Below, in pieces: positions 8,425 to 64,000 of a stretch of 64,000 nt of DNA. The translations under genes and the position numbers were made by a program. This DNA comes from Candidatus Krumholzibacteriia bacterium. Lineage in GTDB: Bacteria; Krumholzibacteriota; Krumholzibacteriia; LZORAL124-64-63. How positions within the stretch are numbered: position 1 is the stretch's first letter; every line of letters starts with the position of its first letter. Location: positions 5,235 through 69,234 of the forward strand of contig JANTGJ010000002.1 of NCBI GenBank assembly GCA_024762975.1, in the 5' to 3' direction. Under the pieces are notes generated by a model. It ran no database searches. It was not told the origin of the DNA and saw only the letters and a program-made list of their open reading frames with translations.

Positions 8425-8440
8425 GGGAGTAGTCGAGGAC

Positions 8441-10579: not shown

Positions 10580-10656
10580 GAGCGTTCGAACAATGACCAG
10601 AAACGAACGAGTTCGCTACGAGAGCTGCTGTGTAACCCCCGAGAGGAGCGCCACGC

Positions 10657-12180: not shown

Positions 12181-12220
12181 TCGCACAGGTTTTCCGGTAC
12201 TGCTCAAGGAGCGTTCCTCA

Positions 12221-42274: not shown

Positions 42275-42329
42275 ATACCTGCCCAGATCGGAGCCGGTCC
42301 GTCGGGACCGGCTCCGAGTGTTGTCGTTG

Positions 42330-43397
42330 CTACTGGATGAGAACCTGGAAATCGGCCTGCACCGAACCGGCACCGGCCACGGTGCCGAAGTTCACGCGCA
42401 CGTGCGTGACATTCGGGTCGCTGCCGTCGCCGCTGTCGGCCGGGATGTAGGTCCAGGTCGTGCCGCCATCGTTCGAGAACGTGACGCCGGCACCCAGCGG
42501 GTTGGAAATGACCGAGCCGACCACAAAGGCGGTGTTGGCCGGGATCGCATCCGCGACGACCACGTTGTCGGCATCGGCGCCGCCCGTGTTGGCCACGGTC
42601 AGGTTGTAGCCCATGATCGCGCCGGGGATGGCCTTCGGGTTGACCAGGCCGTTGAACGGATCGCTGGCCACGGCCGAGCTTTTCGTCACGGTCAGGGCAG
42701 CGGAGACGACCAGGAACTGGTCCACGGCCGAGAAGCGTCCGTCCTGCGCGGCGTCGGCAGTACCGGCACCATCGGCGAACACAATCTGGACGGTGTTCGG
42801 ATCGTCGGCGATCGCGGCGTCGTCCGCGGCGATGGCTGCGCCCGCAGCGCCCACGCCGCCGCCGGCGGCCGTCTGCACGACCAGGTTGTAGTTGGCGACC
42901 TCGGCATCGGCCGCGGCCAGGGGAATGTCACCGACCACGAAGACCGTGATCGACGTGTCCATCGCCAGTTCGTCCACGTAGGTCTGTGTGTCCGTGGCCG
43001 GCTCGTAGGTCGAGTTGCCGTTGGCGTCGACATAGATGGCAACGCCCGTGGCGTCGAAGTCGTCGGCGGCGTCGGCCAGGCTGCTCAGCGCGTAATCCTG
43101 CACCGTGTTACCGGTGTTGGTAACCGACCAGGTCATGTACATGCCCGTGGCTCCGGGGACTACGTTGACCGAGCCGCCGTCCAGGACCGCTACGGTCAGA
43201 TCGACGCGGTTGTCGACCACGAAGGTGGCCGTGTTACTGGCGATCTGGGTCTGTGCCACGGAGCCGACCGTGAAGTCGACGGTGGCGGTGTTGCCGATGG
43301 TCGTTCCCGAGGGCGTGCCGGTGGCCAGCGCCAGCTGAGCCGAGCCCGCGATCAGGATCGTCATCATCAGAGCGATCAGTTTTGCGTTCCGTTGCAT
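42330..43397 (-). CDS. Secreted DUF11-repeat protein (355 aa).
   Basis: AGGAGG RBS. Signal peptide MQRNAKLIALMMTILIAGSAQLALA. C-terminal DUF11: LTVTKSSAVASDPFNGLVNPKAIPGAIMGYNLTVANTGGADADNVVVADAIP...ends FQVLIQ. Confidence 0.8.
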   Translation of the reverse strand: MQRNAKLIALMMTILIAGSAQLALATGTPSGTTIGNTATVDFTVGSVAQTQIASNTATFVVDNRVDLTVAVLDGGSVNVVPGATGMYMTWSVTNTGNTVQDYALSSLADAADDFDATGVAIYVDANGNSTYEPATDTQTYVDELAMDTSITVFVVGDIPLAAADAEVANYNLVVQTAAGGGVGAAGAAIAADDAAIADDPNTVQIVFADGAGTADAAQDGRFSAVDQFLVVSAALTVTKSSAVASDPFNGLVNPKAIPGAIMGYNLTVANTGGADADNVVVADAIPANTAFVVGSVISNPLGAGVTFSNDGGTTWTYIPADSGDGSDPNVTHVRVNFGTVAGAGSVQADFQVLIQ

Positions 43398-43424
43398 TTC
43401 TGCCTCCTGCAGTTGTGCCCTCTG

Positions 43425-43916
43425 CTATTGCAGCAGGGCGGTGTAAGCCACTGATCCGGTCGCGCCGGGCTGCAGTGGTTCGTCGAACGTCCAGCGGATG
43501 TGCGTGCAGTCCGAAGCCAGGGCGGGACGGTCGCTCCCGTTCGTGGCCGGTACACGCAGGGCGGCCAGCTCCCCGAAGCTGCGGCCGTTGTCGATCGAAT
43601 AGGTGACCCGGGCTCCGGCCGGCGGGGTATCTGCCGATTGGAACTCCATGTGTTTCGGGATGGGATTGGTGATGAAGACGTCCTCAGCCGGTTCCTGACC
43701 GTAGTTGCGGTACTGCAGCGTGAAGATCACCTCATCACCGGGAATGACCTTCGTCGCCAGCAGGCGCCGGGTAACCTGTGTCCCGTCGGCCAGCGTTTCG
43801 TGGGTCTCGATCTCGGCGGTCGAGCTCAGCTCGATCGTGCCGCCATCGAGGCTGTCATCGGCCGCCGCAAGGGCCGGCAGCGCGAGAATCAGTACTGTCC
43901 AGATCAGTTGCTTCAT
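43425..43916 (-). CDS. Secreted single-DUF11-domain protein (163 aa).
   Basis: AGGAGG RBS. ATG at 43914-43916. Signal peptide MKQLIWTVLILALPALAAA. ...GDEVIFTLQYRNYGQEPAEDVFITNPIP...ends YTALLQ. Confidence 0.75.
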   Translation of the reverse strand: MKQLIWTVLILALPALAAADDSLDGGTIELSSTAEIETHETLADGTQVTRRLLATKVIPGDEVIFTLQYRNYGQEPAEDVFITNPIPKHMEFQSADTPPAGARVTYSIDNGRSFGELAALRVPATNGSDRPALASDCTHIRWTFDEPLQPGATGSVAYTALLQ

Positions 43917-43978
43917 CGCGTTTCCTCCTGTTCGGGGTTCCTTCGCAATTTCCTTCAAAGCAATCAATGGCCTCTCCA

Positions 43979-44974
43979 TTATTGAATCCTTACCTGGAAG
44001 GTGATGGTCTGGGGGGACGCCCCGGCAGGTACGTCGCCGAGCGCGACGAACACGGTACTCGTGCTGGTCTCGTCGATGTCGCCCGGGTCGGCGTCCTTGG
44101 TGTCGGTCAGGATGGATCCGTTCAGCGTGAGCGAGGCCGGGATGTAGGTGGTGTGATCGGGGATGGGGTCGGACAGGACGAGGCTGCGCGCAGTGCCCGT
44201 CCCGGTCACCGTCATGCGCAGGGTATAGGTGATGATCGCGCCCGAGACCGGCAGGTCGCCGCCATCGGGGTTCCGCACCGTAGCCGACTTCTCCAGGTCG
44301 ACGGAGACGGTGACGACCTCGTAGGCGCCGGTGACTTCACCGAATCCGCCGCTGCGGCCGATTACGGCGTCAGAACCTCCGTCGCCCGCGCCGTGGATCA
44401 CGGTGCCGGGGGCGCCATAGCCCAGGCTCGATCCGACCGCCAGTTTGCATGAACCCTGTGCTCCGGCCGGGGCCTCGACCGGCATATCGCAGACCAGGAA
44501 CAGGACCAGCGACTGGTCGGCGACGAGTTCGGGATCGTTCACGCCCTGAACATAGAGCTCGTCGCGGCTGGGGTCGAAGCGGCCGTCCGTATCGGTATCG
44601 AGATAGATGCGCAGCGTTTCCGGGTCGAAGTCGTCACCGGCCAATGCGGTCAGGCCGGTCAGGTGGAAAATCTGGCTGCCGTTGCCGGTGTTCAGCAGGC
44701 GGAAGGTCAGGGGCTCGTCGAGATCGCCGACGAAGACGGGCAGCTCGGCCGCGTCCTGCCATTCCACGACGAAGTCGAGCACCTCGTCGACCTGAACGGT
44801 CGACCAGTTGCTTGGCGTCGTGAAATCAACATCGCTTTGCGTGTACGTCATCACTGCCTGACTGATGAGCTCGGTTCCAGCCGGAGTGCCGAGCGCAAAA
44901 GCAGTGGTGCAGTTGAGGCAAAGCATGAGGGTCAAGGCCAGCAGCCTTGCCGGGCGTCTCATGGCAACCAACAT
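43979..44974 (-). CDS. Secreted DUF11-repeat protein (about 330 aa).
   Basis: Signal peptide M(LVAM)RRPARLLALTLMLCLNCTTAFA. Start at 44974 or 44962. C-terminal ...AIITYTLRMTVTGTGTARSLVLSDPIP...ends FQVRIQ. Confidence 0.75.
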   Translation of the reverse strand: MLVAMRRPARLLALTLMLCLNCTTAFALGTPAGTELISQAVMTYTQSDVDFTTPSNWSTVQVDEVLDFVVEWQDAAELPVFVGDLDEPLTFRLLNTGNGSQIFHLTGLTALAGDDFDPETLRIYLDTDTDGRFDPSRDELYVQGVNDPELVADQSLVLFLVCDMPVEAPAGAQGSCKLAVGSSLGYGAPGTVIHGAGDGGSDAVIGRSGGFGEVTGAYEVVTVSVDLEKSATVRNPDGGDLPVSGAIITYTLRMTVTGTGTARSLVLSDPIPDHTTYIPASLTLNGSILTDTKDADPGDIDETSTSTVFVALGDVPAGASPQTITFQVRIQ

Positions 44975-45334
44975 TCTTCTCGCAGGACCGTCCGGGGGAA
45001 GCAGGGCGAGTTCCTCTCCAGTCGCGCTGTGACTGATTCGCTGTCGAATCAAGCGCGATCCGGGCGGCTGTCGTGTCGCGACAGGTCGTCCTTGACCTGC
45101 CTCGTTGTTCCTTGTCAGGTATCGGAATGGCGCGTCGTGGAGTTGATTGAGGCGAATCTGTGATCTTTGGTAAGGCGAAGCCTCGGGGCGGGTAAGGTTC
45201 GCCTTAGCCGAAAGCGAGTGAAGTCACGCCGGGTCGGATCTGGACAAAAGGACCGGAACACGGTTCAATGGCGGCGGTATCAATTCGTCAGGGCTTCCGA
45301 AGGGGGAGCCGTTTCTCCTACCGGGAGTCATGCC

Positions 45335-47609: not shown

Positions 47610-50069
47610 CTATTTGGCGAGAGTCATCCGGCCGGTGAAAGAGCCCTGCTGCGTCTGCAGTCGATACAGGTAGACGCCGCTGGCTACCTCGCGCCCCACG
47701 GCGTCTCTTGCGTTCCAAACGACCTGGTGTCGTCCCGCCGGCAGATTCCCGTCCATCAATTGTGCGATGCGCCGGCCCCGGATATCGTAGATCCCGAGGC
47801 GCACCCGCGTCGAGGCGGGCAATTCGAATTCGATGCGTGTGGTCGGGTTGAAGGGGTTGGGGCGATTACCCAGCAGGCGCACGGTGGCCGGTGGAGTCCC
47901 GTTCGTTTCCGGTTCCGTTTCGACGGGCGCGACCCCGTTGCTGCCGACCTCCACGATGCCCAGGTAGGGGATCATGTTGAATCCCGAAATGGTCACGTCC
48001 AGATCCTGACCCGTCGCGGGAGAGGACGCCAGTACGACCGCGACCTGGCCCGAGCTGTCGGCCTGGCCCGATCCATAGAGAATGCCGCCGCCGGTCAGGG
48101 CCACCCGCGCGCCGGCGACCTCCTGTCCCGCCGCCGCGATCTTCAGCGTCCAGTTCGAGGCGCCGGCCGGCAGGGTGGAAGTGTCGAGGATCTCGAATAT
48201 CCCCGGTGGTGCGGTGCGTACCTGCAGGGAGCAGTCCCCGAATACCACATTCTGCTCCATTACCCGAGTGGCTACGGGCAGTCCGGAGTACAGATCCAAT
48301 ACCTTCATCAGACCGCCGTAGTAGAGCGAACCGATCGATGTGGCCCGCTCCTGGACCAGAAGCTCGACGATCTCGGTTTGCATCACCGTGGGGGGGACCC
48401 AGGGGGTCGGCGAGGTGGCCGAAACGACGGCGATGGCGCCCAGCGGCTGGTTCGGTGTCCCGGCCTGCATCCACGACTCGGCGAAACACGGATCCAATGA
48501 GAAATCGCCGTTGGAACAGGAGACATCCACGACCCAGGGCCAGCGTGAGCCATTGGCCAGTCGCGCGACGTCCAGGTTCGTGAAGGGGACGCTGACCCAC
48601 GAGGTGCCGGTCCCATGCCCGAGATAGTTGATCAGCGAGCACCCCTCCTCGACAGCGGTCCGAATGCCGGTGCGGCTGCCGCCGAGGCTCTGGTATTGCC
48701 GGTCGACCGTGTCGAACCCGTAGTCGAGCAGGTCGGCGCGCAGATTCTCGAGACGTTCGAAGTCGGCCGGCACACCTTCATCGCTGCCGATGCCCACGGC
48801 CCGGCGCAGCCACTTCCCGTCGCCTCCGTCGTTGAACTTTTCGTACGCGATGAACTTGCTGACCTGCGTTGCCACCTGCTGCGACGTCTGGGCCGGGATC
48901 CGGGACACGTAGATATCGGGATATTCGTCATCACCTGCCAGCAAGGCATAGCGGCTGTCCGAGTCCGAGCCGTCGTATCGCCCCACGTGCGGCGGGATGG
49001 CGGCATGGTCCCCGACCAGGATGACCCAGGTCAGTCCGGCCGCCTCTTGGAACTTGCCGCGCAAGTAGTTGGTAATCTCCTCGGCGGTCGTGCCGGTCTG
49101 GGCCGTGCTGGCGACCTGCGCATCGATCCCGAGCCGGCGCTTCCATTCCAGCAGCGGCTCCAGATCATCGATGAACGCCGGATTTGAAACCAGCAGCAGG
49201 CGGCCACGCGTCGGCAGGGGAGCGTACTTCTCGTTCGCCGAGGGCGCTTGTGCCGCAAATGCTTCGGCATACACCTGCGAAAACTCGCTGCTCGTGGAGG
49301 CACCGATCGATTTGGTCGGCGATCCGCCCCGCGCGGTGATCTCCAGGCGGAGAATGCGGCTGACGAGCAGCTTGCCCGAGCCCGCATCGTAGCGCACCGG
49401 TTGCAGGCGCAGATTCACTCCCGATTGGTCTCGCAGTCGGAAGGACTCGCCCAGCACGTAGGGTCCGGGAGGCCAGACGCCACCGGAAGCGTAGAAATCC
49501 GAAAATACGACCGGCGCCGTGGCCGGATCGCGGTCCCGCTCCAAATGCCCCAGCGAGGGGACGACCGGGGCGGTCGAGAACTCGGCGACCTCGTGGCGCA
49601 CGACCTTCACTTCCAGATCGGCGCCGGCCGGGATCGGCAGGTTTGCCGCCAGAATCGGTACCTCGGGCATGCCCGCGCGCCGCAACAGGTGTTCGCCGGG
49701 CAACAGCACACGCCCGGCGCGGCGTCCCGCGCTCCAGATCGGTTCGTAGTGGAATCCGGGAATCTCGAGGTCGACCCGCCAGGTCTTTTCGTCGAGGGCT
49801 TCGATTGCCATCTGCGGTCCGCGGATCGATCCGCCGTCCAGCGAGGTCCAGCCCGTGGACAATCCGGCGCTGCCCATGGTTCCGACCAGGGTATCGGGGT
49901 CCGTCAGGGGCGCCCATACGGAACCCCCCGGCGATCGGGCCGCCAGGACCGCGGGATTCGAGGGAGTGCGGTGAGCCATGAAGCCCGGCGGGCTCGAAAT
50001 CAGCCATGTGCCTGCGCCCAGACCGGCCGCAAGCAGGGATACCGACAGGATCGAGACGATTCGCTTCAA
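47610..50069 (-). CDS. Peptidase C25 (gingipain-like cysteine peptidase) with C-terminal Por/T9SS-type sorting domain.
   Basis: TTG start at 50069. Signal peptide MKRIVSILSVSLLAAGLGAG. Gingipain-like propeptide and catalytic region (GDHAAIPPH..., NYLGHGTGTSW, SCSNGDF). C-terminal NRPNPFNPTTRIEFEL...GIYDIRGRRI...GVYLYRLQT...RMTLAK. Confidence 0.85.
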   Translation of the reverse strand: MKRIVSILSVSLLAAGLGAGTWLISSPPGFMAHRTPSNPAVLAARSPGGSVWAPLTDPDTLVGTMGSAGLSTGWTSLDGGSIRGPQMAIEALDEKTWRVDLEIPGFHYEPIWSAGRRAGRVLLPGEHLLRRAGMPEVPILAANLPIPAGADLEVKVVRHEVAEFSTAPVVPSLGHLERDRDPATAPVVFSDFYASGGVWPPGPYVLGESFRLRDQSGVNLRLQPVRYDAGSGKLLVSRILRLEITARGGSPTKSIGASTSSEFSQVYAEAFAAQAPSANEKYAPLPTRGRLLLVSNPAFIDDLEPLLEWKRRLGIDAQVASTAQTGTTAEEITNYLRGKFQEAAGLTWVILVGDHAAIPPHVGRYDGSDSDSRYALLAGDDEYPDIYVSRIPAQTSQQVATQVSKFIAYEKFNDGGDGKWLRRAVGIGSDEGVPADFERLENLRADLLDYGFDTVDRQYQSLGGSRTGIRTAVEEGCSLINYLGHGTGTSWVSVPFTNLDVARLANGSRWPWVVDVSCSNGDFSLDPCFAESWMQAGTPNQPLGAIAVVSATSPTPWVPPTVMQTEIVELLVQERATSIGSLYYGGLMKVLDLYSGLPVATRVMEQNVVFGDCSLQVRTAPPGIFEILDTSTLPAGASNWTLKIAAAGQEVAGARVALTGGGILYGSGQADSSGQVAVVLASSPATGQDLDVTISGFNMIPYLGIVEVGSNGVAPVETEPETNGTPPATVRLLGNRPNPFNPTTRIEFELPASTRVRLGIYDIRGRRIAQLMDGNLPAGRHQVVWNARDAVGREVASGVYLYRLQTQQGSFTGRMTLAK

Positions 50070-52908: not shown

Positions 52909-53754
52909 TCATTCTCTGTCGTCCGATTGCTGTATCCAGTCACAATAGAGCTCCGGTCTGCGGTCGCGGAGAAAGAGTTTCCGGCCGTGGGACCGGGCAA
53001 CCAAATCGAGGTCCACATCACAGTAGAGGATCTCATCGGTTCCTTGTCCGGCCCTCGCTACAACGCGACCCTCAGGGGAACAAACAAACGAATCTCCCGC
53101 AAACGTCAGCTTGTCTTCTCTTCCTACACGGTTGCATAGGGCAATCCAGTAGCCGTTCTGAAAAGCCGTTACTCTCATTTCTGCTTCATAGAGACCCTCG
53201 GGCCATTCGCCAATCGAGCCAGCCTGGGGAACGATCACCAGGTCAGCGCCTTTGACTGCCAATGCACGCATATATTCCGGGTAGTGACGGTCATAGCAGA
53301 TCGCAACACCGAGCCTGCCGAATCGAGTCTCATAGATGGGTGCTCCGGTATCGCCCGGAGTATAGTAGCCTTGCTCATGGAAGTACTCGTATTCGGTGAT
53401 ATGGATCATTCGAGTAATTCCCAGAATGGTCCCATCCGCATCGATGACGGGAGAAGAATCGAAAGTCTGCCCGGGATTGTTTTCATCCTGCTCGAATACA
53501 TTCAGGACAATGACCACACCCAATTCAGCGGCCAACGAGCAAAAGGCATCTGTGGTCGGACCCGGCACGGACTCGGCGTGAGCCAGGCTGTCCAGAGTCG
53601 CTGGAGCTTGCGGGTAGAATCGGCTAAAAGCCAACTCGGCGAACGTGATGACCTGGGCACCGTTTGTCGCGGCTTCGCGGGCAGCGGCCAACCCGCGGGA
53701 CAGGTTGCCATCCTGATCCTCGGTGGCATGTTGTTGAACGAGGGCGATTCTCAT
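52909..53754 (-). CDS. Carbon-nitrogen hydrolase (nitrilase superfamily; N-carbamoylputrescine-amidase or omega-amidase type).
   Basis: MRIALVQQ... with catalytic E (FAELA), K, and C (VAICYD) triad positions. Sits in a region of roughly 52% GC by eye (not computed) versus about 65% in flanking DNA. Confidence 0.9.
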   Translation of the reverse strand: MRIALVQQHATEDQDGNLSRGLAAAREAATNGAQVITFAELAFSRFYPQAPATLDSLAHAESVPGPTTDAFCSLAAELGVVIVLNVFEQDENNPGQTFDSSPVIDADGTILGITRMIHITEYEYFHEQGYYTPGDTGAPIYETRFGRLGVAICYDRHYPEYMRALAVKGADLVIVPQAGSIGEWPEGLYEAEMRVTAFQNGYWIALCNRVGREDKLTFAGDSFVCSPEGRVVARAGQGTDEILYCDVDLDLVARSHGRKLFLRDRRPELYCDWIQQSDDRE

Positions 53755-54117
53755 GACATCTCCAGATCCATTTCAGGACGATGGCACTATCAGGTCCCGG
53801 CATTTCGATCGTTACGGAGGGACGCGCGGCCAGGATACTTCTGTTGATATGCTCAGACCGTCGGTCCATGCCGCTGAATTGTTTCATGATCTTTTTGACT
53901 GCGGCAACTGCTTTCTTTCATTCCTGTTCTTCCCGGACCCGTCCGGGTCAACGGTACAAACTCCTGATCAAGTCCCAACTGGGAGCATCCGTGGGAACGC
54001 CGGGTCCCCAGCCCAGAGTCACGGTGAGGTCGTAATTTACCAGAGGTTCTTCCAGGTAGACCTGGATATGGACATAGTGAATATCCGGGAAGGTTTGATC
54101 GAAGTTCGAATCCCCGG

Positions 54118-55395
54118 TCAAATGGTAATGGGCGAGTCTCCTGGCATGTCTCCTTCGATGATCGCCTGAGCCATTCCCTGTCCCGCCAAACGACCGGTCG
54201 TCCATGCGGCCTGGAAATTGAATCCTCCCGTGATGCCATCGATATCCAGCACCTCGCCGGCCAGATACAGGCCGGGGCAAATTCGGCTGGACATGGTTTT
54301 CAGATCGACCTCGCGCAGGGAGACGCCGCCGCAGGTAACAAACTCGTCCTTGTTCGTAGATTTGCCGTCGACGGACATTCGAGTGTCTTTCAACAGTCCC
54401 GTCAGCCGGCGCCGCGGCTTTTTGCCCAACTCGGCCCAGCGGCATTCGGCCGGGATGCCGGCGCGACGGGCGAGTTCCTCCCACAATCGGCGCGGCAGGT
54501 CTCCGGCATCCGGACGCGCACCAAATACGCTTTTGCGTGGATGGGCTTCGGCCCATTCGAGCAGGACCGTGTCGAGTGCCTCACGGCTCCGATCCGGCAG
54601 CCAATCCACCCCCAACTCGAATCGATAGTCGACCGCGTGGAAATCCCTTGCGCCCCGTGCCGAGAGTTTCAGTACGCCCGGACCGCTGACGCCCCAGTGC
54701 GTCAGCAGCAACGGACCACGCTCCGTCAACGACCTGGCGGGCAGTTCGGAACCAATGGCGCGCACAATCACCGGGTCGACCACAACGCCAGCCAATTCAT
54801 GCCACGCCGGATCCGGGACATGGAAGGTGAAAAGCGAGGGGACCAGCGGTTGGATCGTATGCCCAAGCGAGCGTGCCAGCTCGTGGCCCCCTCCGGCCTC
54901 GTTGCCGCCGGTGGCCAATAGTGTGCAGAGGGTCGAAAGTCGGGATCCGTCGTCGAGTGTCGCGCTTAAACCGTCGCCGGAGCGTTCGAGGGCCGTCACA
55001 GCGCGCCGTGTGCGCACCTCGACACCCATTTCACGGGCTGCACCGCGCAGACACTCGACGATGGTGCCCGAATCGTCCGTTACCGGGAACATCCGCCCGT
55101 CCGCTTCGGTCTTCAACTCGACTCCGCGCTCTGCAAACCAGTCCACGGTGTCCTGCGCTCCCCAGCGTGTCAAAGGGCCGATCAGTTCGCGACCTCCGCG
55201 AGGATAGAAGCCGGAAAACTCGCGCGCATCGAAGCAGGCGTGGGTGACGTTGCACCGGCCGCCCCCGCTGATGGCGACCTTGCGAAGCAGTCTGCCCTGC
55301 TTCTCCAGCAGGACCACCGGCAGATCGGGCCGGGATTCGCGGGCGGCGATGGCCCCGAAAAAGCCTGCCGGGCCGCCACCGATGACAAGAATCAT
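54118..55395 (-). CDS. HI0933-family FAD-dependent oxidoreductase (BaiN/aminoacetone-oxidase-like flavoprotein).
   Basis: MILVIGGGPAGFFGAIAA dinucleotide-binding motif, GGGRCNVT, C-terminal ...FNFQAAWTTGRLAGQ. Confidence 0.9.
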   Translation of the reverse strand: MILVIGGGPAGFFGAIAARESRPDLPVVLLEKQGRLLRKVAISGGGRCNVTHACFDAREFSGFYPRGGRELIGPLTRWGAQDTVDWFAERGVELKTEADGRMFPVTDDSGTIVECLRGAAREMGVEVRTRRAVTALERSGDGLSATLDDGSRLSTLCTLLATGGNEAGGGHELARSLGHTIQPLVPSLFTFHVPDPAWHELAGVVVDPVIVRAIGSELPARSLTERGPLLLTHWGVSGPGVLKLSARGARDFHAVDYRFELGVDWLPDRSREALDTVLLEWAEAHPRKSVFGARPDAGDLPRRLWEELARRAGIPAECRWAELGKKPRRRLTGLLKDTRMSVDGKSTNKDEFVTCGGVSLREVDLKTMSSRICPGLYLAGEVLDIDGITGGFNFQAAWTTGRLAGQGMAQAIIEGDMPGDSPITI

Positions 55396-55526
55396 GCTAC
55401 ACTCCGACGGGATCCGGGTGATCCGCGGCGATCCGGCCGTTCAGGAGACCGTGCCGCGAGGCGATCGTATGGCGCATCATGCCACCGGGGAGAGTGTGTG
55501 CCAATGGGCGAAATCACTTGACCGGA

Positions 55527-55555
55527 TTGACGCGGCGCACAGCGATCGGTACAAT
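55527..55555 (+). promoter_or_regulatory. Near-consensus sigma70-type promoter: TTGACG, 17 nt, TACAAT, about 100 nt upstream of the beta-helix/T9SS-cargo cluster.
   Basis: -35 at 55527-55532, -10 at 55550-55555. Followed by an A7T3 tract at 55583-55592 and GAGAGGGGA before ATG 55664. Confidence 0.45.
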
Positions 55556-55663
55556 GATCCACGGGGGTTCCCATTTCGCGCTAAAAAAATTTCCGAAATT
55601 CGCGATCTCGCCTTTCGCCACAAGAAAACCAATATCGCTCCACACTGATTGAGAGGGGATCTC

Positions 55664-56953
55664 ATGCTGTCTTCGATATCTCGCAACGTGGTGCTGCCTT
55701 GCCTGGTAGTCCTCGTGAGCGCCGCAGTGGCTGGCGCCGATATCATTCCAGTCACCGTCGAGAGCGGGCTCGCCGGAGCCCTGTCCGACGCGGTTGCCGG
55801 CGATGAGTTGGTGCTTGCCTGCGGTACCTATCATGAACAGGGACTGGATGTTGTCGCCGGCGTGACGATTCGAAGTGATTCGGGCGAAGCCGGTTGTGTC
55901 GAACTGGTCTCCGACGGAACCGAGCCCATCCTGTACCTGCGGGATCTCGGGGCGACGACCCGGTTGCAGGGACTGGTGCTGCGGGCCGAGGTCGCCGAGG
56001 GCGGGCTGGTCACCGAATGCGGTGGTGCGTTGCTCTGCGAGGCCGCATCGCCCCTGGTTCAGGACTGTGAATTCCGCGACCTGCAGGCGGTCTATGGCGC
56101 TGCTGTTTTCTGCCGCACGGAATCCTCGCCCGAATTGATCGGGTGCCGATTCACGGACAACTCGGCCGTCGCGATCGGCGGAGCCCTGGCTTGCGTCGAC
56201 GCCAGTATGCCGACGCTGAACGATTGTCTGCTGGCGCGCAACAGCGCGGGATCGACCGGTGGCGCGATCCACGCCGCTGCGGGTTCCCGACCCGCCCTGA
56301 CCGGCTGCACCCTGGCTCAGAATTCGAGCGCGCACGGCGCGGCTCTCTCGGGTTGGGACCTCTCACAGTCGTCGCAGACGCGCGTCATCTGGGCCGAACA
56401 GGATGGCGCCGAGGCCTGGCTGGGAGATGACCTCAGCGTGCCGACCCTGGCATGCAGCGACCTGTACGCCAACGGCGGCGGCGATTGGACCGGAGCCCTG
56501 GCGCCTCAGGCCGAAGCCGGAGGTAATCTCTCTGCCGATCCGTTGTTCTGCGGGGCCGCTGCCTACACGCTGGATGAGACCAGCCCCTGCATCGAAGCCG
56601 GCTCGGGTTGTGGCGGGATCGGCGCCTTCGACGTGGGCTGTGCGAACGGCAGCGGCGTGGAGCAGGAGCTGCCGCAGTTCTCGAATCTGAATTCCGTGTC
56701 TCCCAATCCTTTCAACCCCCGCACTCGAATCAGTTTCGATGTTGCGCGCGATAGTCACGTCGGCATCGAGGTGTACGACCTGGCCGGCCGACTCATCCGC
56801 CGCCTGCTGGATGAGACGATGACGCGTGGTACGCACGAGCTCTTCTGGAGCGGAACGGATGACGAGAGTCGCTCGGTGGCGGCCGGAGTCTATTTCGTTC
56901 GACTGCAAACCGAAGACAATGTTGCTGTACAACGAGTCACTCTGGTCAAGTAG
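55664..56953 (+). CDS. Secreted right-handed parallel beta-helix protein with C-terminal Por/T9SS-type sorting domain.
   Basis: Signal peptide MLSSISRNVVLPCLVVLVSAAVAGA. Repetitive beta-helix turns (NSAGSTGGAIHAAAGSRPALTGCTLAQNSSAHGAAL). C-terminal SPNPFNPRTRISFDV...YDLAGRLIR...GVYFVRLQT...RVTLVK. Confidence 0.8.
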   Translation: MLSSISRNVVLPCLVVLVSAAVAGADIIPVTVESGLAGALSDAVAGDELVLACGTYHEQGLDVVAGVTIRSDSGEAGCVELVSDGTEPILYLRDLGATTRLQGLVLRAEVAEGGLVTECGGALLCEAASPLVQDCEFRDLQAVYGAAVFCRTESSPELIGCRFTDNSAVAIGGALACVDASMPTLNDCLLARNSAGSTGGAIHAAAGSRPALTGCTLAQNSSAHGAALSGWDLSQSSQTRVIWAEQDGAEAWLGDDLSVPTLACSDLYANGGGDWTGALAPQAEAGGNLSADPLFCGAAAYTLDETSPCIEAGSGCGGIGAFDVGCANGSGVEQELPQFSNLNSVSPNPFNPRTRISFDVARDSHVGIEVYDLAGRLIRRLLDETMTRGTHELFWSGTDDESRSVAAGVYFVRLQTEDNVAVQRVTLVK

Positions 56954-56986
56954 CCGAGCCGTCATCCCGGCCGAAGGGGGTTTGAA

Positions 56987-59071
56987 ATGAAGAACAAGAT
57001 CGAAATCCAATGGGCGGCATTCGGACTACTCATCGTAGCCGCATTGATCGTAACTGCGGTGCTGCTGGGCGCCGCCGGAGGCGCCTTTGCCTCCGTCGAG
57101 GACCATTTGCCGGTGGTACAGGTCGAGTTCCCCAACCTGGGCGGAAATTCGGCCAAGACCGTTCCGACGAACCTGACGGTAGGCATACTGGGTGCGGATG
57201 CGGATGCGGCCGGTGCGCTACCCTGGAAATTCCGCACGCTGTGGGTGCCGGCTGAAACACCTTCGGGGGATCCGATCCAGATCCGTTCCGTGTATGAGCA
57301 ATATATGGATGAATTGATCCGCTGGGACGATGCCCGCTGGAGCGAGTGGCTCGAATACCCGCAGGATGGCAGTACCCCCCAGTTGAACTTCGACGGGCTG
57401 GAAGATGGCTCGAACTGGCTACTGGCCGCTCAGGTCATGGATCACAATGGCGCCGTAAGCCTGGAGCGCGGCTACCAGCGCGAAGTGGCGAATTTCCACG
57501 TCAATGCGATCGCCTATGTTCCCGTTGTCGTGTTGCAGGAAGAGTACCTGGGGGCGGCCCCGAATCCGTATCCGTCCGACCAGGTCGCGGTCGGGCAGCC
57601 GCTGACGTTTTTCTGGTATGCGGACGCCTCGGCATATAATGGTACGATCGTATCCTACCGACACGGCTGGGATCTCATCGACTCCGAGGACCCGATGGAT
57701 CCGGGCTGGTCGGTGCCCGCGGGAACCGAGCCGCAAAACCTGATTTCGACCGAACGGACATTTTCCGCCGGTGGGCTGCACTATTTCCATCTGCGCGTCG
57801 AGGACAACAGCGGCACGGTGCTGATCTACCGCTGGTCCCTGGACGTGGTTCCCTATGTCCCGTATGAAATGCAGCGTCCGCTGGTCTTCATCGATCAGGT
57901 GATCGATGACAACTCGAACCGCTGGCTTGACGAATCGGGCAACCCGCGCGACCACGAAGTCTACCGGGATGCGTTCTGGCAGTTCCTCGAAGGCCAGGAT
58001 GGCGCCAGTGGCTTCGATTGGGACCGCGACCGCTTCGGCCAGAACCAGGTCGTGCGCTACGAAGATCTGGTCGGCTATCGTGTCGTGCTCTGCAACGCTC
58101 GTTTGCATACCGAGCAGTTGATGTTGTCGCAGTTCCGGGCCGAGAACGATGTGGATCGCTACGTCTGGCTGCACGCCTACCAGAACGGTGGCGGCAACCT
58201 GATGCTGGTCGGTGATTCCAGTCTCGATTCATTCATCGAGGTGAAACCGAATTACTGGGTGCCGCACGTGTTCGATTCGACGCAACCGCCGGTGATGGGG
58301 TATGAGACCAGTTTCGGACTGGCCACTCGACCCGATGGCAGCGTCATCGCTCGCGGGCCACGGATGTACCCTTCGGCAACCGTGGGCATCGAGACCCTCG
58401 ACTGGTCGACGAACGCTTCGAAGACGGCCTATGGTCGCCAGGTTCGTCTGGACCAGGATCGCAAGGCCGAGTGCGCCGCTCTCAAAGGCGTGGTTCTGGA
58501 TTCGTCGTTCCGCACTCGTCATGGGATCTCCGGTGCGGTGTTGGCTGACACGCTGCTGGGAGACGCTCTGATCGATTGGCAGGACCAGGCCGACGAAGCC
58601 GCCGCGACACTGGAGCTGAATTCGAGTGTCTTCCCGTTCCGAAACGATGAGTTCGTCGACGCGGATATCAGTTCCCGGGGTGTGACCGTGAACCCGCAAA
58701 CCTGTGCCGGCGCGCCGAACGACGAATGCATCGAACCGATGTACCGCGGCATTTCACGCATGGACTACATTCGCCAGTACAAATGGGCTCAGGGTGATAC
58801 GGGCTGGCCGCTGAGCCAACATACCGCGGCCGAACTGCAGGACGATCTCTGCGGTCCGCTGGCGCTGACGGACTACGAAGGTCATGCCCTGGCCTCGGCA
58901 AAAACGAATGCCCAGACCTACGGTTTCCTGTCGTACAAGACCGCCGGTGCCAAGCCGAGCGGCAAGGCAGACGTGTACTGGGGATTTGATCCCTACCGCT
59001 TCGACCATGAGAAATCGATGCAGGCCGTACGTTGGGCCTTGGACTATTTCGGATTGCAGTTGAACCCGTGA
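56987..59071 (+). CDS. Hypothetical membrane-anchored or secreted protein (694 aa).
   Basis: N-terminal signal-anchor AAFGLLIVAALIVTAVLLGAAGGAFA. No recognisable family. 33 bp after the previous gene and 20 bp before the next. Confidence 0.7.
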   Translation: MKNKIEIQWAAFGLLIVAALIVTAVLLGAAGGAFASVEDHLPVVQVEFPNLGGNSAKTVPTNLTVGILGADADAAGALPWKFRTLWVPAETPSGDPIQIRSVYEQYMDELIRWDDARWSEWLEYPQDGSTPQLNFDGLEDGSNWLLAAQVMDHNGAVSLERGYQREVANFHVNAIAYVPVVVLQEEYLGAAPNPYPSDQVAVGQPLTFFWYADASAYNGTIVSYRHGWDLIDSEDPMDPGWSVPAGTEPQNLISTERTFSAGGLHYFHLRVEDNSGTVLIYRWSLDVVPYVPYEMQRPLVFIDQVIDDNSNRWLDESGNPRDHEVYRDAFWQFLEGQDGASGFDWDRDRFGQNQVVRYEDLVGYRVVLCNARLHTEQLMLSQFRAENDVDRYVWLHAYQNGGGNLMLVGDSSLDSFIEVKPNYWVPHVFDSTQPPVMGYETSFGLATRPDGSVIARGPRMYPSATVGIETLDWSTNASKTAYGRQVRLDQDRKAECAALKGVVLDSSFRTRHGISGAVLADTLLGDALIDWQDQADEAAATLELNSSVFPFRNDEFVDADISSRGVTVNPQTCAGAPNDECIEPMYRGISRMDYIRQYKWAQGDTGWPLSQHTAAELQDDLCGPLALTDYEGHALASAKTNAQTYGFLSYKTAGAKPSGKADVYWGFDPYRFDHEKSMQAVRWALDYFGLQLNP

Positions 59072-59091
59072 TTTTGTGGGAGAGGTCATTT

Positions 59092-59526
59092 ATGAACCGG
59101 ATTATTCGCATCAGTACTGTCTTCCTCGTCGCGCTTGCCCTGCTGGCGGGTGCGGCGGGGAATGGACGGGCCGACACTGTCGATTCGGCGTTGTTCGTAC
59201 TCAATACCCAGTACCTCAGTCCGGTCGGTGGCGCGGAGTTGCCCGCCACGCATCGACTGGGGGCCTGCGCCCCGAACCCCTTCAATCCCGCGACGACGAT
59301 TGGTTTCTCCCTGGCGAATCGAGCCCAGGTCGAATTGATCGTCTACGACCTGACCGGTCGCCGCGTGCGTACTCTGCTGGCCGGCCGTTGGGTCGAGGCC
59401 GGCGATCACGAAGCGAAGTGGCGCGGGATCGACGAACAGGGGCGTGAAGTCGCCGCCGGTGTCTATCTGGCCCGTTTCCGGGCCGGTGAAATTACCGCTA
59501 CGCGTCGCATGACGCTGATCAAGTAA
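59092..59526 (+). CDS. Small secreted protein (144 aa) that is essentially only a signal peptide plus a Por/T9SS-type sorting domain.
   Basis: GGGAGAGG RBS. MNRIIRISTVFLVALALLAGAAGNGRA. APNPFNPATTIGFSLA...YDLTGRRVRTLL...GVYLARF...RMTLIK. Only about 40 residues between the signal peptide and the sorting domain. Confidence 0.7.
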   Translation: MNRIIRISTVFLVALALLAGAAGNGRADTVDSALFVLNTQYLSPVGGAELPATHRLGACAPNPFNPATTIGFSLANRAQVELIVYDLTGRRVRTLLAGRWVEAGDHEAKWRGIDEQGREVAAGVYLARFRAGEITATRRMTLIK

Positions 59527-59583
59527 ATCGAAATTGACATGGGGCCCGACCGGGTCGGGCCCGATCAGGGATGGGGTAGCGAT

Positions 59584-61815
59584 ATGCAGAATCGAATGAT
59601 TTGGATCCTGGTCGCGGCGCTGATCGTGACCGGAACCACCGCCGCCCGGGCAGATGACCCGCGAATCGAAAACCTGGTGGTGCAGCAGCGAAGCGGCAGC
59701 TACGAGGTGGAGATCCAGTACGACCTGAACTGTCTCGAATGCGACTCGGTCTACGTCCAGGCCTTCTGCTCCGTGGACGGCGGGGCGACCTGGCCGTTGG
59801 CCTGCCGCACTGTCAGCGGCGATATCGGAGCGTTCGTGCGGCCGGGAACCGGACTGACCGCGGTCTGGGATGCTGCGGCGGATCTGCCGGGCATCTACAC
59901 CGAATCGGCGCGCGTCCGGGTGGTCGCCGCCGAATTCTATCCGGCGCCCTACGTGGCCGGCCTGTGGCGCAGCTCGTTGGACGACAAGAACAAGGTGGCT
60001 TTCGCCAAGGCGGACACTTTCAGCTTCGCACAGAACGACACGATCGCCTTCGGCGAGTCGTTCCGGCTGGGCTGGGATGTCACCGCCCCGGTGGCCGAGG
60101 CCCTCACACCCGAGATGGTTGCCGCGAGGGACACGGTGGTTCCCTACGACGATGCCCTGTTGGGCTACCAGTACCTGCTTCCCGGCGAAGTGGACTGGCA
60201 GCCGCGTCTCTTCGATGAGAGCACCGGTGACAGCGTGCTGTATTTCGCACCGACCGAGAGTGTGGCCTTCTTCAATGACGGCAGCGGCCCGGATGCCCGT
60301 CACCGGTTGTTGGAAAACGGATTCCACCGCATTCAGCTCAATGCACTGGATATTGTCGGCTCCGAGATTCCCACACAGGGCCGGGATTTCTGGTTCGTGG
60401 TGAACTATGATCCCGAGACCCTCGTGCTGGATGGCGAGACGGATTGGGAGCATCCCGAGGATCCGCAGCTCTATCCGTATTATGTGTCGCTGGATGACCC
60501 CTTGCAGATCAAGGTTCCTTTCGTTTCGGGGGAGCGGATCCCGGATCGCAGCTACGTCGTCTGCAAGGCGCTGATGCGGGATGACGCTCGCGATCTGCTT
60601 CTGGATCCTGGCCACGAAGTCGGATTGAGTGGCTACGTCGAGGGAACCAGTACCCTGCTCAACGGTGCTTTGTACTCGTTCCAGACGCCCAGTTCCCAAG
60701 CCGACGTGGCGCCGACCTGGCCGGCCGGGCCGAACGGGTGGACAGCCGACACGCTCGGCTTCCTGGTCGCTCCATCGACTCAGATGACCGTCAATCTGCG
60801 CGCCGTGGATGAGCACGGCCGACGCGACGGAACTCCCGCGCAATTGACGTTCGACGTGGGCTATCCTCCCTGTGTGCAGTGCCTGGAGGTCGTATCTGCG
60901 GGCGAGGCCTCCGCTTTCGACGCGAGCACGGCCTGCTACACGCCCGGCGAGGCCCATCCTTGCTTCGGCGACACCGCGGTTTTCTATGTGAAGGAATCCG
61001 CTGGGACGGCCATCGCCGGCCGCGAGTACCTCTGGCAGGAACCTGATCTTTCCTTCCTGGCGATCGATCGTGAGAGCCTGTCGGCCGAGGTCGTCGAAGA
61101 CACGCTGGGGTTGGGTGCGACCGCATACCTGATTCCGATGACGACCTACGCGATGGAAACTCTCTACCACGGCCGCGACGACTCTCGCGAAAGTTGGCAG
61201 GATCCGATTCGACGGATCGGGGCCTGGCGTTCGCAGATCGATCACGATTGCGATCCGAACAATGACCTGATTGACGGCGGCGGGTATGACGATCTGTCGC
61301 TGCCGAACTGGGGAAACTCGTACGAGGGTGACCTGACGATCGGCGCAGATGGGGTTTGGAGAAATCGCGTTCGCGTGCACATTCCCACGAGTCTGTTGAC
61401 CGGCGGCGTCAGCAACTACCGGCTGCAGTTATTCGTGAATCATATCTGGGGCCCTGGCGTGCCATTCGACCTCAACCACCCGCTCATCGATGTCCTGTAT
61501 GGGATTTCGATCCGCGAGGCCGGGCTGGCCCGGATCTCGGCAATCGCACTGGACCAGACGATCTGCATGACCACACCGTTGCGACCCGGATCCTATCATA
61601 CGTTCCACAATCTCCGTCCCGACGGCGATCAGTTGGGGGCATATCAGACCTGGCGAGATTGTTCCGGTTTGTCCGGAGTCTCGAGTTCGATTCCGTTGGC
61701 TGATCTGGCCATGATGAGTTCGGGCGGGGTTCCGGCCGAACGCTACTATCGCATCGTGATTCAGGCCGGCTCCGGGACCGGAGAGGATGTCGAGTGTGTA
61801 GGTACCGGGTTCTAG
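59584..61815 (+). CDS. Hypothetical secreted Cys-containing protein (743 aa).
   Basis: Signal peptide MQNRMIWILVAALIVTGTTAARA. Multiple Cys pairs (NCLECDS...FCSVDG...LACRT; PPCVQCLEV; DHDCDP). No recognisable family. Confidence 0.7.
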   Translation: MQNRMIWILVAALIVTGTTAARADDPRIENLVVQQRSGSYEVEIQYDLNCLECDSVYVQAFCSVDGGATWPLACRTVSGDIGAFVRPGTGLTAVWDAAADLPGIYTESARVRVVAAEFYPAPYVAGLWRSSLDDKNKVAFAKADTFSFAQNDTIAFGESFRLGWDVTAPVAEALTPEMVAARDTVVPYDDALLGYQYLLPGEVDWQPRLFDESTGDSVLYFAPTESVAFFNDGSGPDARHRLLENGFHRIQLNALDIVGSEIPTQGRDFWFVVNYDPETLVLDGETDWEHPEDPQLYPYYVSLDDPLQIKVPFVSGERIPDRSYVVCKALMRDDARDLLLDPGHEVGLSGYVEGTSTLLNGALYSFQTPSSQADVAPTWPAGPNGWTADTLGFLVAPSTQMTVNLRAVDEHGRRDGTPAQLTFDVGYPPCVQCLEVVSAGEASAFDASTACYTPGEAHPCFGDTAVFYVKESAGTAIAGREYLWQEPDLSFLAIDRESLSAEVVEDTLGLGATAYLIPMTTYAMETLYHGRDDSRESWQDPIRRIGAWRSQIDHDCDPNNDLIDGGGYDDLSLPNWGNSYEGDLTIGADGVWRNRVRVHIPTSLLTGGVSNYRLQLFVNHIWGPGVPFDLNHPLIDVLYGISIREAGLARISAIALDQTICMTTPLRPGSYHTFHNLRPDGDQLGAYQTWRDCSGLSGVSSSIPLADLAMMSSGGVPAERYYRIVIQAGSGTGEDVECVGTGF

Positions 61816-61870
61816 CCCGGCGCAGAGGAAGAGTCTGAATTATCGCGGACAATCGGTGGTGCCTCGACCC

Positions 61871-61908
61871 ATGTGTCCGGTCGACTGCTTGCAGTGGACC
61901 GGACACAT
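61871..61908. terminator. 12-bp perfect inverted repeat (atgtgtccggtc...gaccggacacat) with a 14-nt loop, between convergent genes.
   Basis: Read directly from the sequence. Followed by TTTAC on the plus strand. Confidence 0.4.
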
Positions 61909-61923
61909 TTACCGCGGCACAAT

Positions 61924-62946
61924 CTACTGGAATCGACCGATTCCCAGGTCCCGGATTGTCTCGAGCAACTTTTCGTGTACGTGTCCGTTGCTGACGATCA
62001 CTCCCAGATTGTTTTCCAGCTGATACCCGTGTTTGAACTCCAGTTCCTTGCCCCGGATGTCCGTTACGCGCCCACCTGCCTCGGTGACCACGAGCACGCC
62101 GCCGGCGTGGTCCCAAATCTTCTCGCGGTACTTCCCGTCGCGCGGCAGGCGCAGGTAGGCCTCGGCTTCGCCGCGACTGACGACCGCGTACTTGGTCTGG
62201 CTGTCCAGGCGAGCCGGTTCGGCGGCGATTTGCAGGGATTCGGCGATGCGCGCGGCGTCGCCGTGGGAGGAATGCGCGGCTTCGACCGATTCACAGAAGC
62301 GGATCCGCGTCGGGTCGGTCTGCGGGCTGACGTGCACCGGTACGGCCCGGTCGTCACCAATCAGCGGCAATGACCACGCGCCCTGGCCGCGGATGGCACA
62401 CAGCAGGCTACCGTCGCCGCGATCGGCCACGTCGTTCGACAGGATCGGACCGAGATTGGGGCAACCCAGGATCGCAACCTCGATCTCCCCGTCGAGGATC
62501 AGCGCCAGCGAAACGGCGTACTGCATCTTGCGCAGGAAGCCCTTGGTACCGTCGATCGGGTCCAGGGTCCAGTAGCGGGGCGAGTGGTCCTTGGCGCCGC
62601 CACGGTCGATCCACCGGCAGACGTCGTCCAGGTTCACGTCCGGAGTCAGCTCGGCAACATGTCCGACCACCCGCTGTGCCAGGGCCTCGTTGCCGGTCTC
62701 GCGCAGCGCGGTCGAGTCTTCTTCACCGATCACCGGGTCCGCAGGGAAGACTTCACCCAGCGCGCGGCAAACCAGGGCCTGACTGCCGAAGTCGGCTACG
62801 GTGACCGGGCTGCGGTCCTTCTTCTGCAACTCGCCCAGGTCGATCTGCGCCTGCACCGTGCGGCACAGCTGTCCGGCTTGGCGCACGGCCGCCAATCCGG
62901 TTTCGAGTTCCTGTGCCAAAGGATGATCCTGCCAGGGACGGTTCAT
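61924..62946 (-). CDS. 3'(2'),5'-bisphosphate nucleotidase (HAL2/CysQ-type inositol-monophosphatase family).
   Basis: WTLDPIDGTKGF and WDHAGG metal-binding motifs. ATG at 62946 with GGAG 9 nt upstream; alternative ATG at 62961. Confidence 0.85.
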   Translation of the reverse strand: MNRPWQDHPLAQELETGLAAVRQAGQLCRTVQAQIDLGELQKKDRSPVTVADFGSQALVCRALGEVFPADPVIGEEDSTALRETGNEALAQRVVGHVAELTPDVNLDDVCRWIDRGGAKDHSPRYWTLDPIDGTKGFLRKMQYAVSLALILDGEIEVAILGCPNLGPILSNDVADRGDGSLLCAIRGQGAWSLPLIGDDRAVPVHVSPQTDPTRIRFCESVEAAHSSHGDAARIAESLQIAAEPARLDSQTKYAVVSRGEAEAYLRLPRDGKYREKIWDHAGGVLVVTEAGGRVTDIRGKELEFKHGYQLENNLGVIVSNGHVHEKLLETIRDLGIGRFQ

Positions 62947-62951
62947 TCCAG

Positions 62952-64000
62952 TTACTCCCATTCGATGGTTCCGGGTGGCTTGCTCGTCAAATCGTATGCC
63001 ACACCGCTGATGCCGGGCAACGCGCCGATCGACTGAGCCAATTCCTTCAGCAGAGCGATCGGCAGCTTCGCGGCTGTCGCTGTCATTGCGCGCTCGCTGT
63101 GGATCGGACGCAAAATGCACAATTCGGTTCCCTTGCCCCCGACCCGCAATGGCACCAGTACCGTCGGACACTGCCAGACCTCGCTGTACAGTCCGTGACG
63201 GCGTAGGCCGTCCATCATCAGGAAGTCGCACTCTCGCAGCAGGTCAAGGCGGTCACGGGTCATCTCGGCCGGCAGCAGCCGGACGTCGTTCGGCAACTTG
63301 TCGCCGAGCCACCACAGCGAACGGTTCAGTCCGCCGATCGTCTTGAACAGGGTACCGGAGGCCTGCTGCAGTTTGTCCCAGTCGGCCTCGCCGGCGTCGA
63401 AACCGCCCGCCAGCAGCACCGGGTGTTCGTAGCTGCGCAGGTCGGCCTTGACGCCGACGGACTTGATCGGCAGGGGGGCCGCCTGCAGGCCGTAGCCCTG
63501 CGCGGCAAGGGCCACGGCCGGCGAGATCCGGGCCAACTCGTCCTCGCCCGCGACCTGGCCGTTCGAGCAAAGCAGCCGTACGCCCAGGCCGGGGCCGGGA
63601 AAGGGGTGCCGCCAGATCATATCGTGGGGGATACCCATCAGCTCGCCGAGTTCACGGACCTCGACCTTGTAAAGGTCGGCCAACGGTTCGATGATCTTCC
63701 CGGCGGCGATCATCTCCTCGATGATCGGAACGCGGTTGTGGTGCGTTTTGATCGTGTCGGCGCGCTTGGTGGCACCGCTCTCGATGGTGTCGGGGTAGAT
63801 CGTACCTTGGCCCAGGAGGTGATTCTCAATGCCCAGGCGACGCGCCTCGCTCTCGAATACCTCGATGAAGGTGTCACCGATCGCGCGGCGTTTTTCCTCG
63901 GGTTCGATCCTGCCGGCCAGCGCGTTCAGAAAGGTGTCCGTGGCGTCGATGAAGTGGAAATTCCGTCCCAGGCCCAGATCGTTGAACATCTCGACGACGG
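62952..64000 (-). CDS. guaA: GMP synthase (glutamine-hydrolysing), C-terminal ATP-pyrophosphatase and dimerisation domains. 5' end lies beyond the window.
   Basis: ...IGDTFIEVFE...GTIYPDTIES...IKTHHN...MIWRHPFPGPGLGVR...DFLMMDGLRR...VAYDLTSKPPGTIEWE matches the GuaA C-terminus, including the terminal EWE. The ORF continues open to position 64000. Confidence 0.85.
   Translation of the reverse strand, partial: VVEMFNDLGLGRNFHFIDATDTFLNALAGRIEPEEKRRAIGDTFIEVFESEARRLGIENHLLGQGTIYPDTIESGATKRADTIKTHHNRVPIIEEMIAAGKIIEPLADLYKVEVRELGELMGIPHDMIWRHPFPGPGLGVRLLCSNGQVAGEDELARISPAVALAAQGYGLQAAPLPIKSVGVKADLRSYEHPVLLAGGFDAGEADWDKLQQASGTLFKTIGGLNRSLWWLGDKLPNDVRLLPAEMTRDRLDLLRECDFLMMDGLRRHGLYSEVWQCPTVLVPLRVGGKGTELCILRPIHSERAMTATAAKLPIALLKELAQSIGALPGISGVAYDLTSKPPGTIEWE

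Follow-up and report, generated by a model that had tools for sequence, protein, structure and literature searches.

How does a secreted protein without a sorting domain reach its destination when the gene directly upstream encodes little except such a domain? The question is raised by a locus in 64,000 nucleotides (nt) of DNA from a Candidatus Krumholzibacteriia bacterium (assembly GCA_024762975.1, contig JANTGJ010000002.1, positions 5,235 to 69,234 of the forward strand), a stretch that we analysed as a whole and refer to as the window. Type IX secretion system (T9SS) substrates are recognised today by a covalently attached C-terminal domain (CTD), and genome surveys count cargo in that way. 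The locus consists of four co-oriented genes on the + strand (55664-61815), separated by intergenic gaps of 33, 20 and 57 nt, of which the first and third encode products with a CTD and the second and fourth products that lack one:

55664-56953, + strand: G1, 429 amino acids (aa), a probable beta-helix protein with a sorting domain
56987-59071, + strand: G2, 694 aa, a secreted or signal-anchored protein that lacks a sorting domain
59092-59526, + strand: G3, 144 aa, the sorting-domain mini-protein
59584-61815, + strand: G4, 743 aa, a protein with a signal peptide and with neither sorting domain nor lipid anchor

Our answer, which we hold tentatively, is that G3 may supply a sorting or anchoring domain in trans to G4. 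This is the most economical reading because neighbouring genes for CTD-bearing and CTD-less proteins recur, because lipid anchors present in related proteins have been lost from those of the four-gene cluster, and because relatives of G2 with a fused CTD exist.

The sorting domains themselves are recognisable in both proteins to which the first-pass annotation of this DNA had assigned them. G1 is composed of a signal peptide, a probable right-handed beta-helix with weak matches to PMP-like repeats, and a C-terminal T9SS type-A sorting domain, while G3 is made up of a signal peptide of ~27 aa, ~23 mature residues that include the motif DSxLFxLNT, and a type-A sorting domain (P51-K144). By eye, from the translations, both N-termini are hydrophobic with AxA-type cleavage sites. 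Against the TIGR04183 hidden Markov model (cut-off 23 bits) G1 scores 30.6 and G3 passes narrowly with 24.1, the match stopping 4 residues short of the stop codon in G1 and G3 alike; both fall short of PF18962 (24.6 and 19.2, respectively, cut-off 27). The beta-helix of G1 scores 21.8 against Beta_helix (PF13229; gathering cut-off 25.9), and the orthologue in a syntenic locus (L002) passes with 29.8. The domain of G3 also passes the cut-off of FlgD_ig (PF13860; 32.5 vs 27). Identification of G3 as a FlgD flagellar hook-capping protein was rejected, as the NCBIfam FlgD equivalogs gave at most 25 bits against cut-offs of at least 230 and the N-terminal FlgD domain is absent.

The FlgD_ig score of G3 (32.5 bits, compared with 19.2 for Por_Secre_tail), together with the PF18962 scores of G1 and G3, would suit an explanation in which the CTDs of this phylum are not T9SS signals and serve instead as FlgD_ig-type Ig domains for binding to the wall or envelope, or for oligomerisation. 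Consistent with this, there is no T9SS core gene in the window, and our literature search on T9SS in Krumholzibacteriota found no paper. We nevertheless consider this explanation improbable, as both G1 and G3 pass the curated TIGR04183 cut-off and the secreted proteins that share the domain, though otherwise unrelated (C25 and S8 peptidases, beta-helix and BNR proteins), always have it at their very C-terminal end, a placement that is the hallmark of sorting signals. Moreover, a C25 peptidase with a CTD that is weakly PorU-like is encoded in the window, and the BNR protein of a housekeeping locus described below matches the C-terminal region of PorZ (E = 1e-9).

G3 belongs to a conserved family whose members measure 137-155 aa and share the signal peptide, the DSxLFxLNT peptide, a pre-CTD 'LP..xL' segment and the CTD. 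S32, F35 and P51 are invariant in the alignment of 16 sequences, and the conservation of the N-terminal motif equals that of the CTD core. Pairwise ratios of nonsynonymous to synonymous substitution rates (dN/dS) range from 0.10 to 0.62, the one unsaturated pair having a dN of 0.20 and a dS of 0.64. Since the family is conserved and these ratios lie below 1, G3 is a real gene under purifying selection and not a fragment, which bears out its earlier listing as a gene. The description of its product (59092-59526) as having no cargo domain at all overlooks the ~23 mature residues with DSxLFxLNT and their invariant serine and phenylalanine.

The same data bear on the notion that G3 is an evolutionary leftover, either a CTD split from a G2-CTD fusion or a truncated large CTD protein. 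In its favour, such fusions exist, G3 begins 20 nt after G2 at exactly the position of a fused CTD, and a 1000-aa CTD protein precedes the G4-type gene in the housekeeping locus. The signal peptide that G3 has of its own, its maintained size, its dN/dS values and its invariant motif residues all speak against a leftover, and the occurrence of G3-G4 in loci without any G2 largely refutes it, leaving it extremely unlikely. Both particular derivations were rejected: fission of a G2-CTD fusion because of those same G2-free pairs, and internal deletion of the large housekeeping CTD protein because the N-termini share only a loose D[ST]xxxL, which is not convincing.

Further CTD-only proteins that seem to be full length (P0114, P0173, P0199, P0200 and P0220; 89-125 aa) were seen on contigs of 22-558 kb, and a clear signal peptide was present in P0220 only. 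Stand-alone sorting-domain open reading frames (ORFs) may be widespread and unstudied.

The position of G3 is strict. Parts of the cluster were mapped onto 88 loci, and G3 was found 11-61 nt directly upstream of a window-type G4 in 11 of 11 loci; it was missing from the 8 loci that have G1-G2 without G4. Three of the G3-G4 pairs (L086, L087 and L088) stand alone in unrelated contexts with no G1 or G2 nearby. The predicted partner, G4, starts with a signal peptide and an Ig-like domain (residues 27-131), after which other beta-sandwich domains follow in a chain; it has conserved cysteines (13 in total, 8 nearly invariant) and an acidic DxDxN..DGGG loop, and it carries neither a sorting domain nor a lipobox. 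The lipobox L-x-G-C-RAF is present in all 45 housekeeping-type G4 paralogues retrieved (P0059-P0103); the signal peptides of the 27 window-type G4 proteins are plain, and their N-terminal Ig domain is a different one. The window-type G2 and G4 proteins have lost the lipobox of their housekeeping paralogues. Among the roles that the first-pass annotation had floated for a sorting-domain-only protein, those of attachment adaptor and marker for co-secretion gain support from the adjacency in 11 of 11 loci, from the three pairs without G1-G2 and from the lipobox loss of G4, and that of decoy found no specific support.

Comparison among loci also changes how the cluster should be described, as it does not behave as the single four-gene unit that had been proposed. 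It is composed of two autonomous two-gene modules, G1-G2 and G3-G4, that stand side by side, all in the uncultured phylum Krumholzibacteriota. The full order G1, G2, G3, G4 is complete in six loci (the window, L009, L011, L056, L083 and L085), with flanking genes that vary from locus to locus, and is interrupted by contig ends in two others (L057 and L084); G1-G2 is found alone in at least eight loci, L002 included. Besides in the window, G1 precedes a window-type relative of G2 at 19 loci; more distant G2 paralogues (31-35% identity) are not accompanied by it. Locus L002 (JGI Ga0675941_000025) is syntenic with window positions 52909-63989, with CN_hydrolase and HI0933-like genes on one side and inositol phosphatase and GMP synthase genes on the other, and has G1-G2-G2 where the window has G1-G2-G3-G4. 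The G3-G4 module has therefore been gained, or exchanged for a second G2, at a fixed chromosomal site.

Relatives of G2 and G4 also occur together in a phylum-wide housekeeping locus, found ~45 times (e.g., L003 and L004; L004:4522-15412), which adjoins glyQS and PPDK in both loci whose flanks were examined (L003 and L004). In order, its genes encode an orphan CTD protein of ~1000 aa, a G4-type and then a G2-type protein, and a BNR double-propeller protein of ~790 aa, with the first CTD protein immediately preceding the G4-type and the G2-type immediately preceding the other CTD protein. Both middle products of this locus are lipoproteins, the G4-type with the lipobox L-x-G-C-RAFEPE and the G2-type with AAGC-STNTD. 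The C-terminal region of the BNR protein matches residues 635-744 of the PorZ structure 5m11 (E = 1e-9), and the ~1000-aa CTD protein has no sequence relative among solved structures. The locus could be this lineage's own equivalent of the T9SS attachment complex. A genome can have both types of locus (e.g., the pairs L014/L056, L013/L057 and L040/L011), and the two modules of the window are accessory paralogues of the housekeeping locus.

The G2 family provides the third line of evidence. G2 has a signal peptide or signal anchor and, as had been noted for both large proteins, neither G2 nor G4 carries a sorting domain or belongs to a recognisable family; their Sec signals are visible, searches of Pfam and NCBIfam gave no match to either, and neither has a sequence relative in the PDB. 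They are unrelated to each other (BLASTP found nothing, and hhalign of the family profiles gave a probability of 0.8%). In the AlphaFold model of G2 (predicted local distance difference test, pLDDT, 73), a hydrophobic helix at the N-terminus is followed by two FN3/Ig-like domains modelled with confidence (residues ~40-290) and by a C-terminal alpha/beta domain that resembles ThuA/GATase1-like folds (PDB 1t0b, 3rht and 4jqs) in a region of low confidence (pLDDT 40-75). The four invariant cysteines of G2, the cysteines of G4 and the acidic loop of G4 fit an extracytoplasmic location. At E <= 1e-3, 527 of 1.84 billion cluster representatives belong to the G2 family, of which some genomes have several copies; nearly all homologues of G2 and G4 come from metagenome-assembled genomes of Krumholzibacteriota, and a few carry other labels. 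Several G2 relatives carry a fused CTD, including two in tandem in L075 (7453-9843, 797 aa; 9962-12373, 804 aa) and four others (P0250, P0251, P0257 and P0358), which suggests that the G2 family can be T9SS cargo. Three kinds of member are thus known: lipid-anchored ones, ones to which a CTD is fused, and ones that have neither.

These observations can be joined into a proposed mechanism. The genomic side of it is solid: the gene structure, the assignment of the CTDs by hidden Markov model, the conservation of G3 under purifying selection, the strict G3-G4 adjacency, the lipobox loss and the G2-CTD fusions are all shown by the sequences. Each module pairs a type-A CTD protein with a putatively Sec-exported, multi-Ig-domain partner that lacks a CTD. 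In the first module, G1, a probable adhesin-like beta-helix cargo, is followed by G2 with its two FN3 domains and putative ThuA/GATase1-like domain, and in the second, G3 is followed by G4 with its chain of Ig-like domains. We infer that G3 interacts physically with G4, binding it through the conserved N-terminal peptide, and the CTD of G3 would then give G4, in trans, passage through the T9SS or docking on it, and attachment to the cell surface. G1 may serve G2 in a similar manner. The expected outcome would be a cell-surface assembly, probably with a biochemical role in adhesion or glycan binding. In a more specific version, G3 would be a detachable T9SS sorting and anchoring subunit that attaches through its peptide to periplasmic G4, perhaps contributing a strand to the N-terminal Ig domain of G4, and whose CTD takes the folded complex through the translocon and tethers it at the surface, replacing the lipid anchor of the ancestral paralogue; we consider this version unlikely as it stands.

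The adjacency of G3 and G4 could instead reflect co-regulation, with no complex between them. G3 would then be an independent, very small T9SS cargo whose 23-residue peptide is released or attached to the surface alone, and G2 and G4 would be periplasmic proteins that never leave the cell, such as factors for the folding, processing or scaffolding of the neighbouring cargo. Precedents for small CTD proteins are known (Fjoh_0547, 112 aa; PorA, 246 aa; PMC7712824), CTD-only proteins of 89-146 aa that seem to be full length occur on long contigs in other lineages, and G2 and G4 have Sec signals with no recognisable signal for crossing the outer membrane. What this explanation leaves unaccounted for is that G3 is tied to an anchor-less G4 in 11 of 11 loci, isolated pairs included, that relatives of G2 carry fused CTDs, and that the G3 peptide is conserved to the same degree as its domain core. 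We regard it as somewhat unlikely, and as the main rival of our reading.

A regulatory function for G3 was also considered. PorA (PGN_0123) of P. gingivalis is a small CTD protein (246 aa) with a ~135-residue FimH-like N-terminal domain, its CTD binds PorV (PMC7712824), and it acts upstream of PorXY-SigP (PMC7712824; PMC12152298). By analogy, G3 could be a PorA-like regulatory or decoy CTD protein that occupies or senses PorV or the translocon and so signals or tunes the secretion flux of the cargo encoded in the operon. Yet G3 has only ~23 residues in place of the 135-residue FimH-like domain, it belongs to an accessory, patchy module and does not accompany core secretion or regulatory genes, and no two-component or extracytoplasmic function (ECF) sigma gene was consistently adjacent in the loci examined, which makes such a role very unlikely. 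The missing FimH-like domain and the ~23 mature residues before the CTD also led us to reject G3 as a homologue of PorA.

Several considerations weigh against the supply of a CTD in trans by G3. The export of a CTD-less partner riding on a CTD protein is, to our knowledge, undescribed for the T9SS. In the loci that have only G1-G2, G2 lacks a lipid anchor as well as a fused CTD, and a mini-CTD protein is missing there too; an anchor is therefore not obligatory for the G2 family. The co-occurrence counts are not independent in phylogenetic terms. Neither the CTD of G1 nor that of G3 attains the gathering score of PF18962, and Pfam and NCBIfam scans of the window genes found no T9SS core component in the 64 kb. 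Finally, if the housekeeping lipoproteins face the periplasm, G4 would be expected to stay periplasmic while G3 exits, and the model breaks.

The transcription of the four genes was considered from four features of the surrounding DNA:

55527-55555, + strand: sigma-70-like promoter, TTGACG-17 nt-TACAAT, 109 nt upstream of the G1 start codon
55556-55663, + strand: putative 5' leader of ~100 nt, from direct reading of the sequence, with an AT-rich inverted repeat, AATTTCCGAAATT (55588-55600), and a Shine-Dalgarno-like site, GAGAGGGGA
59542-59562, + strand: GC-rich hairpin between G3 and G4 (stem of 9 bp, loop of 3 nt)
61871-61908, + strand: strong stem-loop with TTTA after it, flanked by the stop of G4 (61815) and that of a convergent inositol-phosphatase gene (61924)

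The gene spacings and the promoter were found as the first-pass annotation had given them. The boxes of the promoter (TTGACG, 55527-55532; TACAAT, 55550-55555) match 10 of 12 consensus positions, but two such sites in the 7.5-kb region, against 1.7 expected, mean that the single site is not above chance. In 11 of 12 related loci, however, a TTGNNN-N16-18-TANNNT element, often preceded by TGTA, does recur 100-184 nt 5' of the G1-type gene, compared with 2% of random 300-bp windows in the same loci (binomial P ~3e-18). A G-rich, Shine-Dalgarno-like motif precedes each of the four starts by 7-10 nt, that at 59584 included, and is also found in the G4 orthologues. Downstream, the stem-loop at 61871-61908 is long and near-perfect (12+4 bp), and the 130-nt terminal region folds at -57.9 kcal/mol (z = -4.2; 0 of 200 shuffles folded as well); with its short T-run, it escaped a consensus terminator scan. 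It is likely the end of the operon. On account of the short gaps, the Shine-Dalgarno-like sites, the positionally conserved promoter and the hairpin after the G4 stop, it is plausible that G1-G4 form a single operon with a beginning and an end, and the earlier proposal of one transcript stands to that extent. Within the leader, the patch at 55573-55605 is AT-rich compared with a genome of 62% GC, and the inverted repeat AATTTCCGAAATT is flanked by ATTTCGCG and AATTCGCG; this repeat could be a candidate operator. An Rfam scan of 55300-62000 returned zero matches.

The same four genes were called independently on an identical metagenomic contig (Logan SRR19843167), the sole difference being a G4 start at 59539. 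We prefer the start at 59584 (743 aa) because the G-rich Shine-Dalgarno-like motif is present there and none precedes 59539; the longer, 758-aa form is further disfavoured as its extension is missing in the relatives retrieved and the spacer hairpin would become coding. That hairpin had been suggested to attenuate read-through into G4. The stem exists at 59542-59562, with a centroid free energy of ~-20 kcal/mol, but no U-tract follows it, the terminator scan gave no call, no counterpart was present in the orthologous G3-G4 spacers of L009, L011, L056 and L057, the z score is -1.5 and the element is unique in the window. We therefore rejected it as a conserved regulatory feature, be it an intrinsic terminator or an attenuator, and as a repeated element; the stability of the mRNA nearby may be affected by it, and any function is doubtful.

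Elsewhere in the window, an 819-aa protein encoded on the - strand (47610-50069) joins a propeptide and a peptidase domain of the C25 type to a type-A CTD that is 48% identical to that of G3. Its match to the PorU sortase model is weak (67.6 bits, cut-off 420), and the product may be a gingipain-like cargo or else a divergent PorU. Also on the - strand (34630-45052), genes for five DUF11-repeat proteins in a row look like another envelope or surface gene cluster; one product, of 1982 aa, has DUF11 and CarboxypepD_reg together with an OmpA peptidoglycan-binding domain in its interior, and one also carries DUF3344. The remaining neighbours noted are a partial complex I (nuo) operon on the + strand (2930-13747; chains 3, 6 (20 kDa), 1, J, K, L, M and N) and genes of the S9 prolyl-oligopeptidase family at 13866-16451 and 25528-27756.

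Should a CTD-only protein indeed deliver or anchor a CTD-less partner, this would be the first piggyback secretion or split signal in the T9SS, cargo inventories across the Fibrobacteres-Chlorobi-Bacteroidetes (FCB) superphylum would be too low, and the many CTD-only mini-ORFs in metagenomes of the FCB group would be adaptors for unrecognised cargo. A secretion signal of this kind could also be used in engineering as a modular adaptor. Whatever the mechanism, the analysis defines two orphan, phylum-restricted families of envelope proteins (G2 and G4) and a phylum-wide four-gene locus with a PorZ-like protein, and it points to a natural experiment on the retention of surface proteins in which a lipid anchor, a fused CTD and a separate CTD protein are used within one family.

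In their general design, G1 and G3 are similar to the type-A cargo of the T9SS, such as the gingipains of Porphyromonas gingivalis and proteins of Flavobacterium, with an N-terminal Sec signal, a C-terminal domain of ~85 residues, the PNPFNP and GVY motifs and a terminal lysine. They differ in that the host belongs to the Krumholzibacteriota and not the Bacteroidota, and in that the domain is FlgD_ig-like and lies under the PF18962 cut-off. The fold suggested for the C-terminal domain of G2 recalls the ThuA-like and class-I glutamine-amidotransferase-like folds, from which it departs in having no sequence similarity and no conserved cysteine at the expected nucleophile position. Type-B CTD cargo adjoins a cognate PorP/SprF-like gene, as in SprB-SprF of F. 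johnsoniae, where the partners are outer-membrane beta-barrels. The present modules follow a similar genomic logic, with a putative T9SS cargo gene beside the gene of a dedicated partner that would be needed for its handling; here, in contrast, soluble multi-Ig proteins take the place of the partners, and the CTD belongs to type A. PorU and PorZ are CTD proteins kept at the surface by an uncleaved CTD docked on PorV or PorQ. A likeness to these is seen in the housekeeping BNR protein, which matches 5m11, and in the C25 peptidase of the window, which carries a CTD, although the whole-protein scores are far below the cut-offs (PorZ, 48.8 vs 260; PorU, 67.6 vs 420) and neither protein belongs to the G1-G4 cluster. 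Closest in size to G3 are Fjoh_0547 of F. johnsoniae and PorA, since all have little beyond a signal peptide and a CTD. G3 departs from PorA, with its FimH-like domain and its PorXY-SigP role, in having only a 23-residue peptide and in being strictly paired with a gene for a CTD-less partner, a pairing that is not reported for PorA or Fjoh_0547 (PMC7712824). Small CTD-only proteins were thus already known, and what is new is the obligate pairing of one with a specific anchor-less partner, together with a conserved N-terminal peptide.

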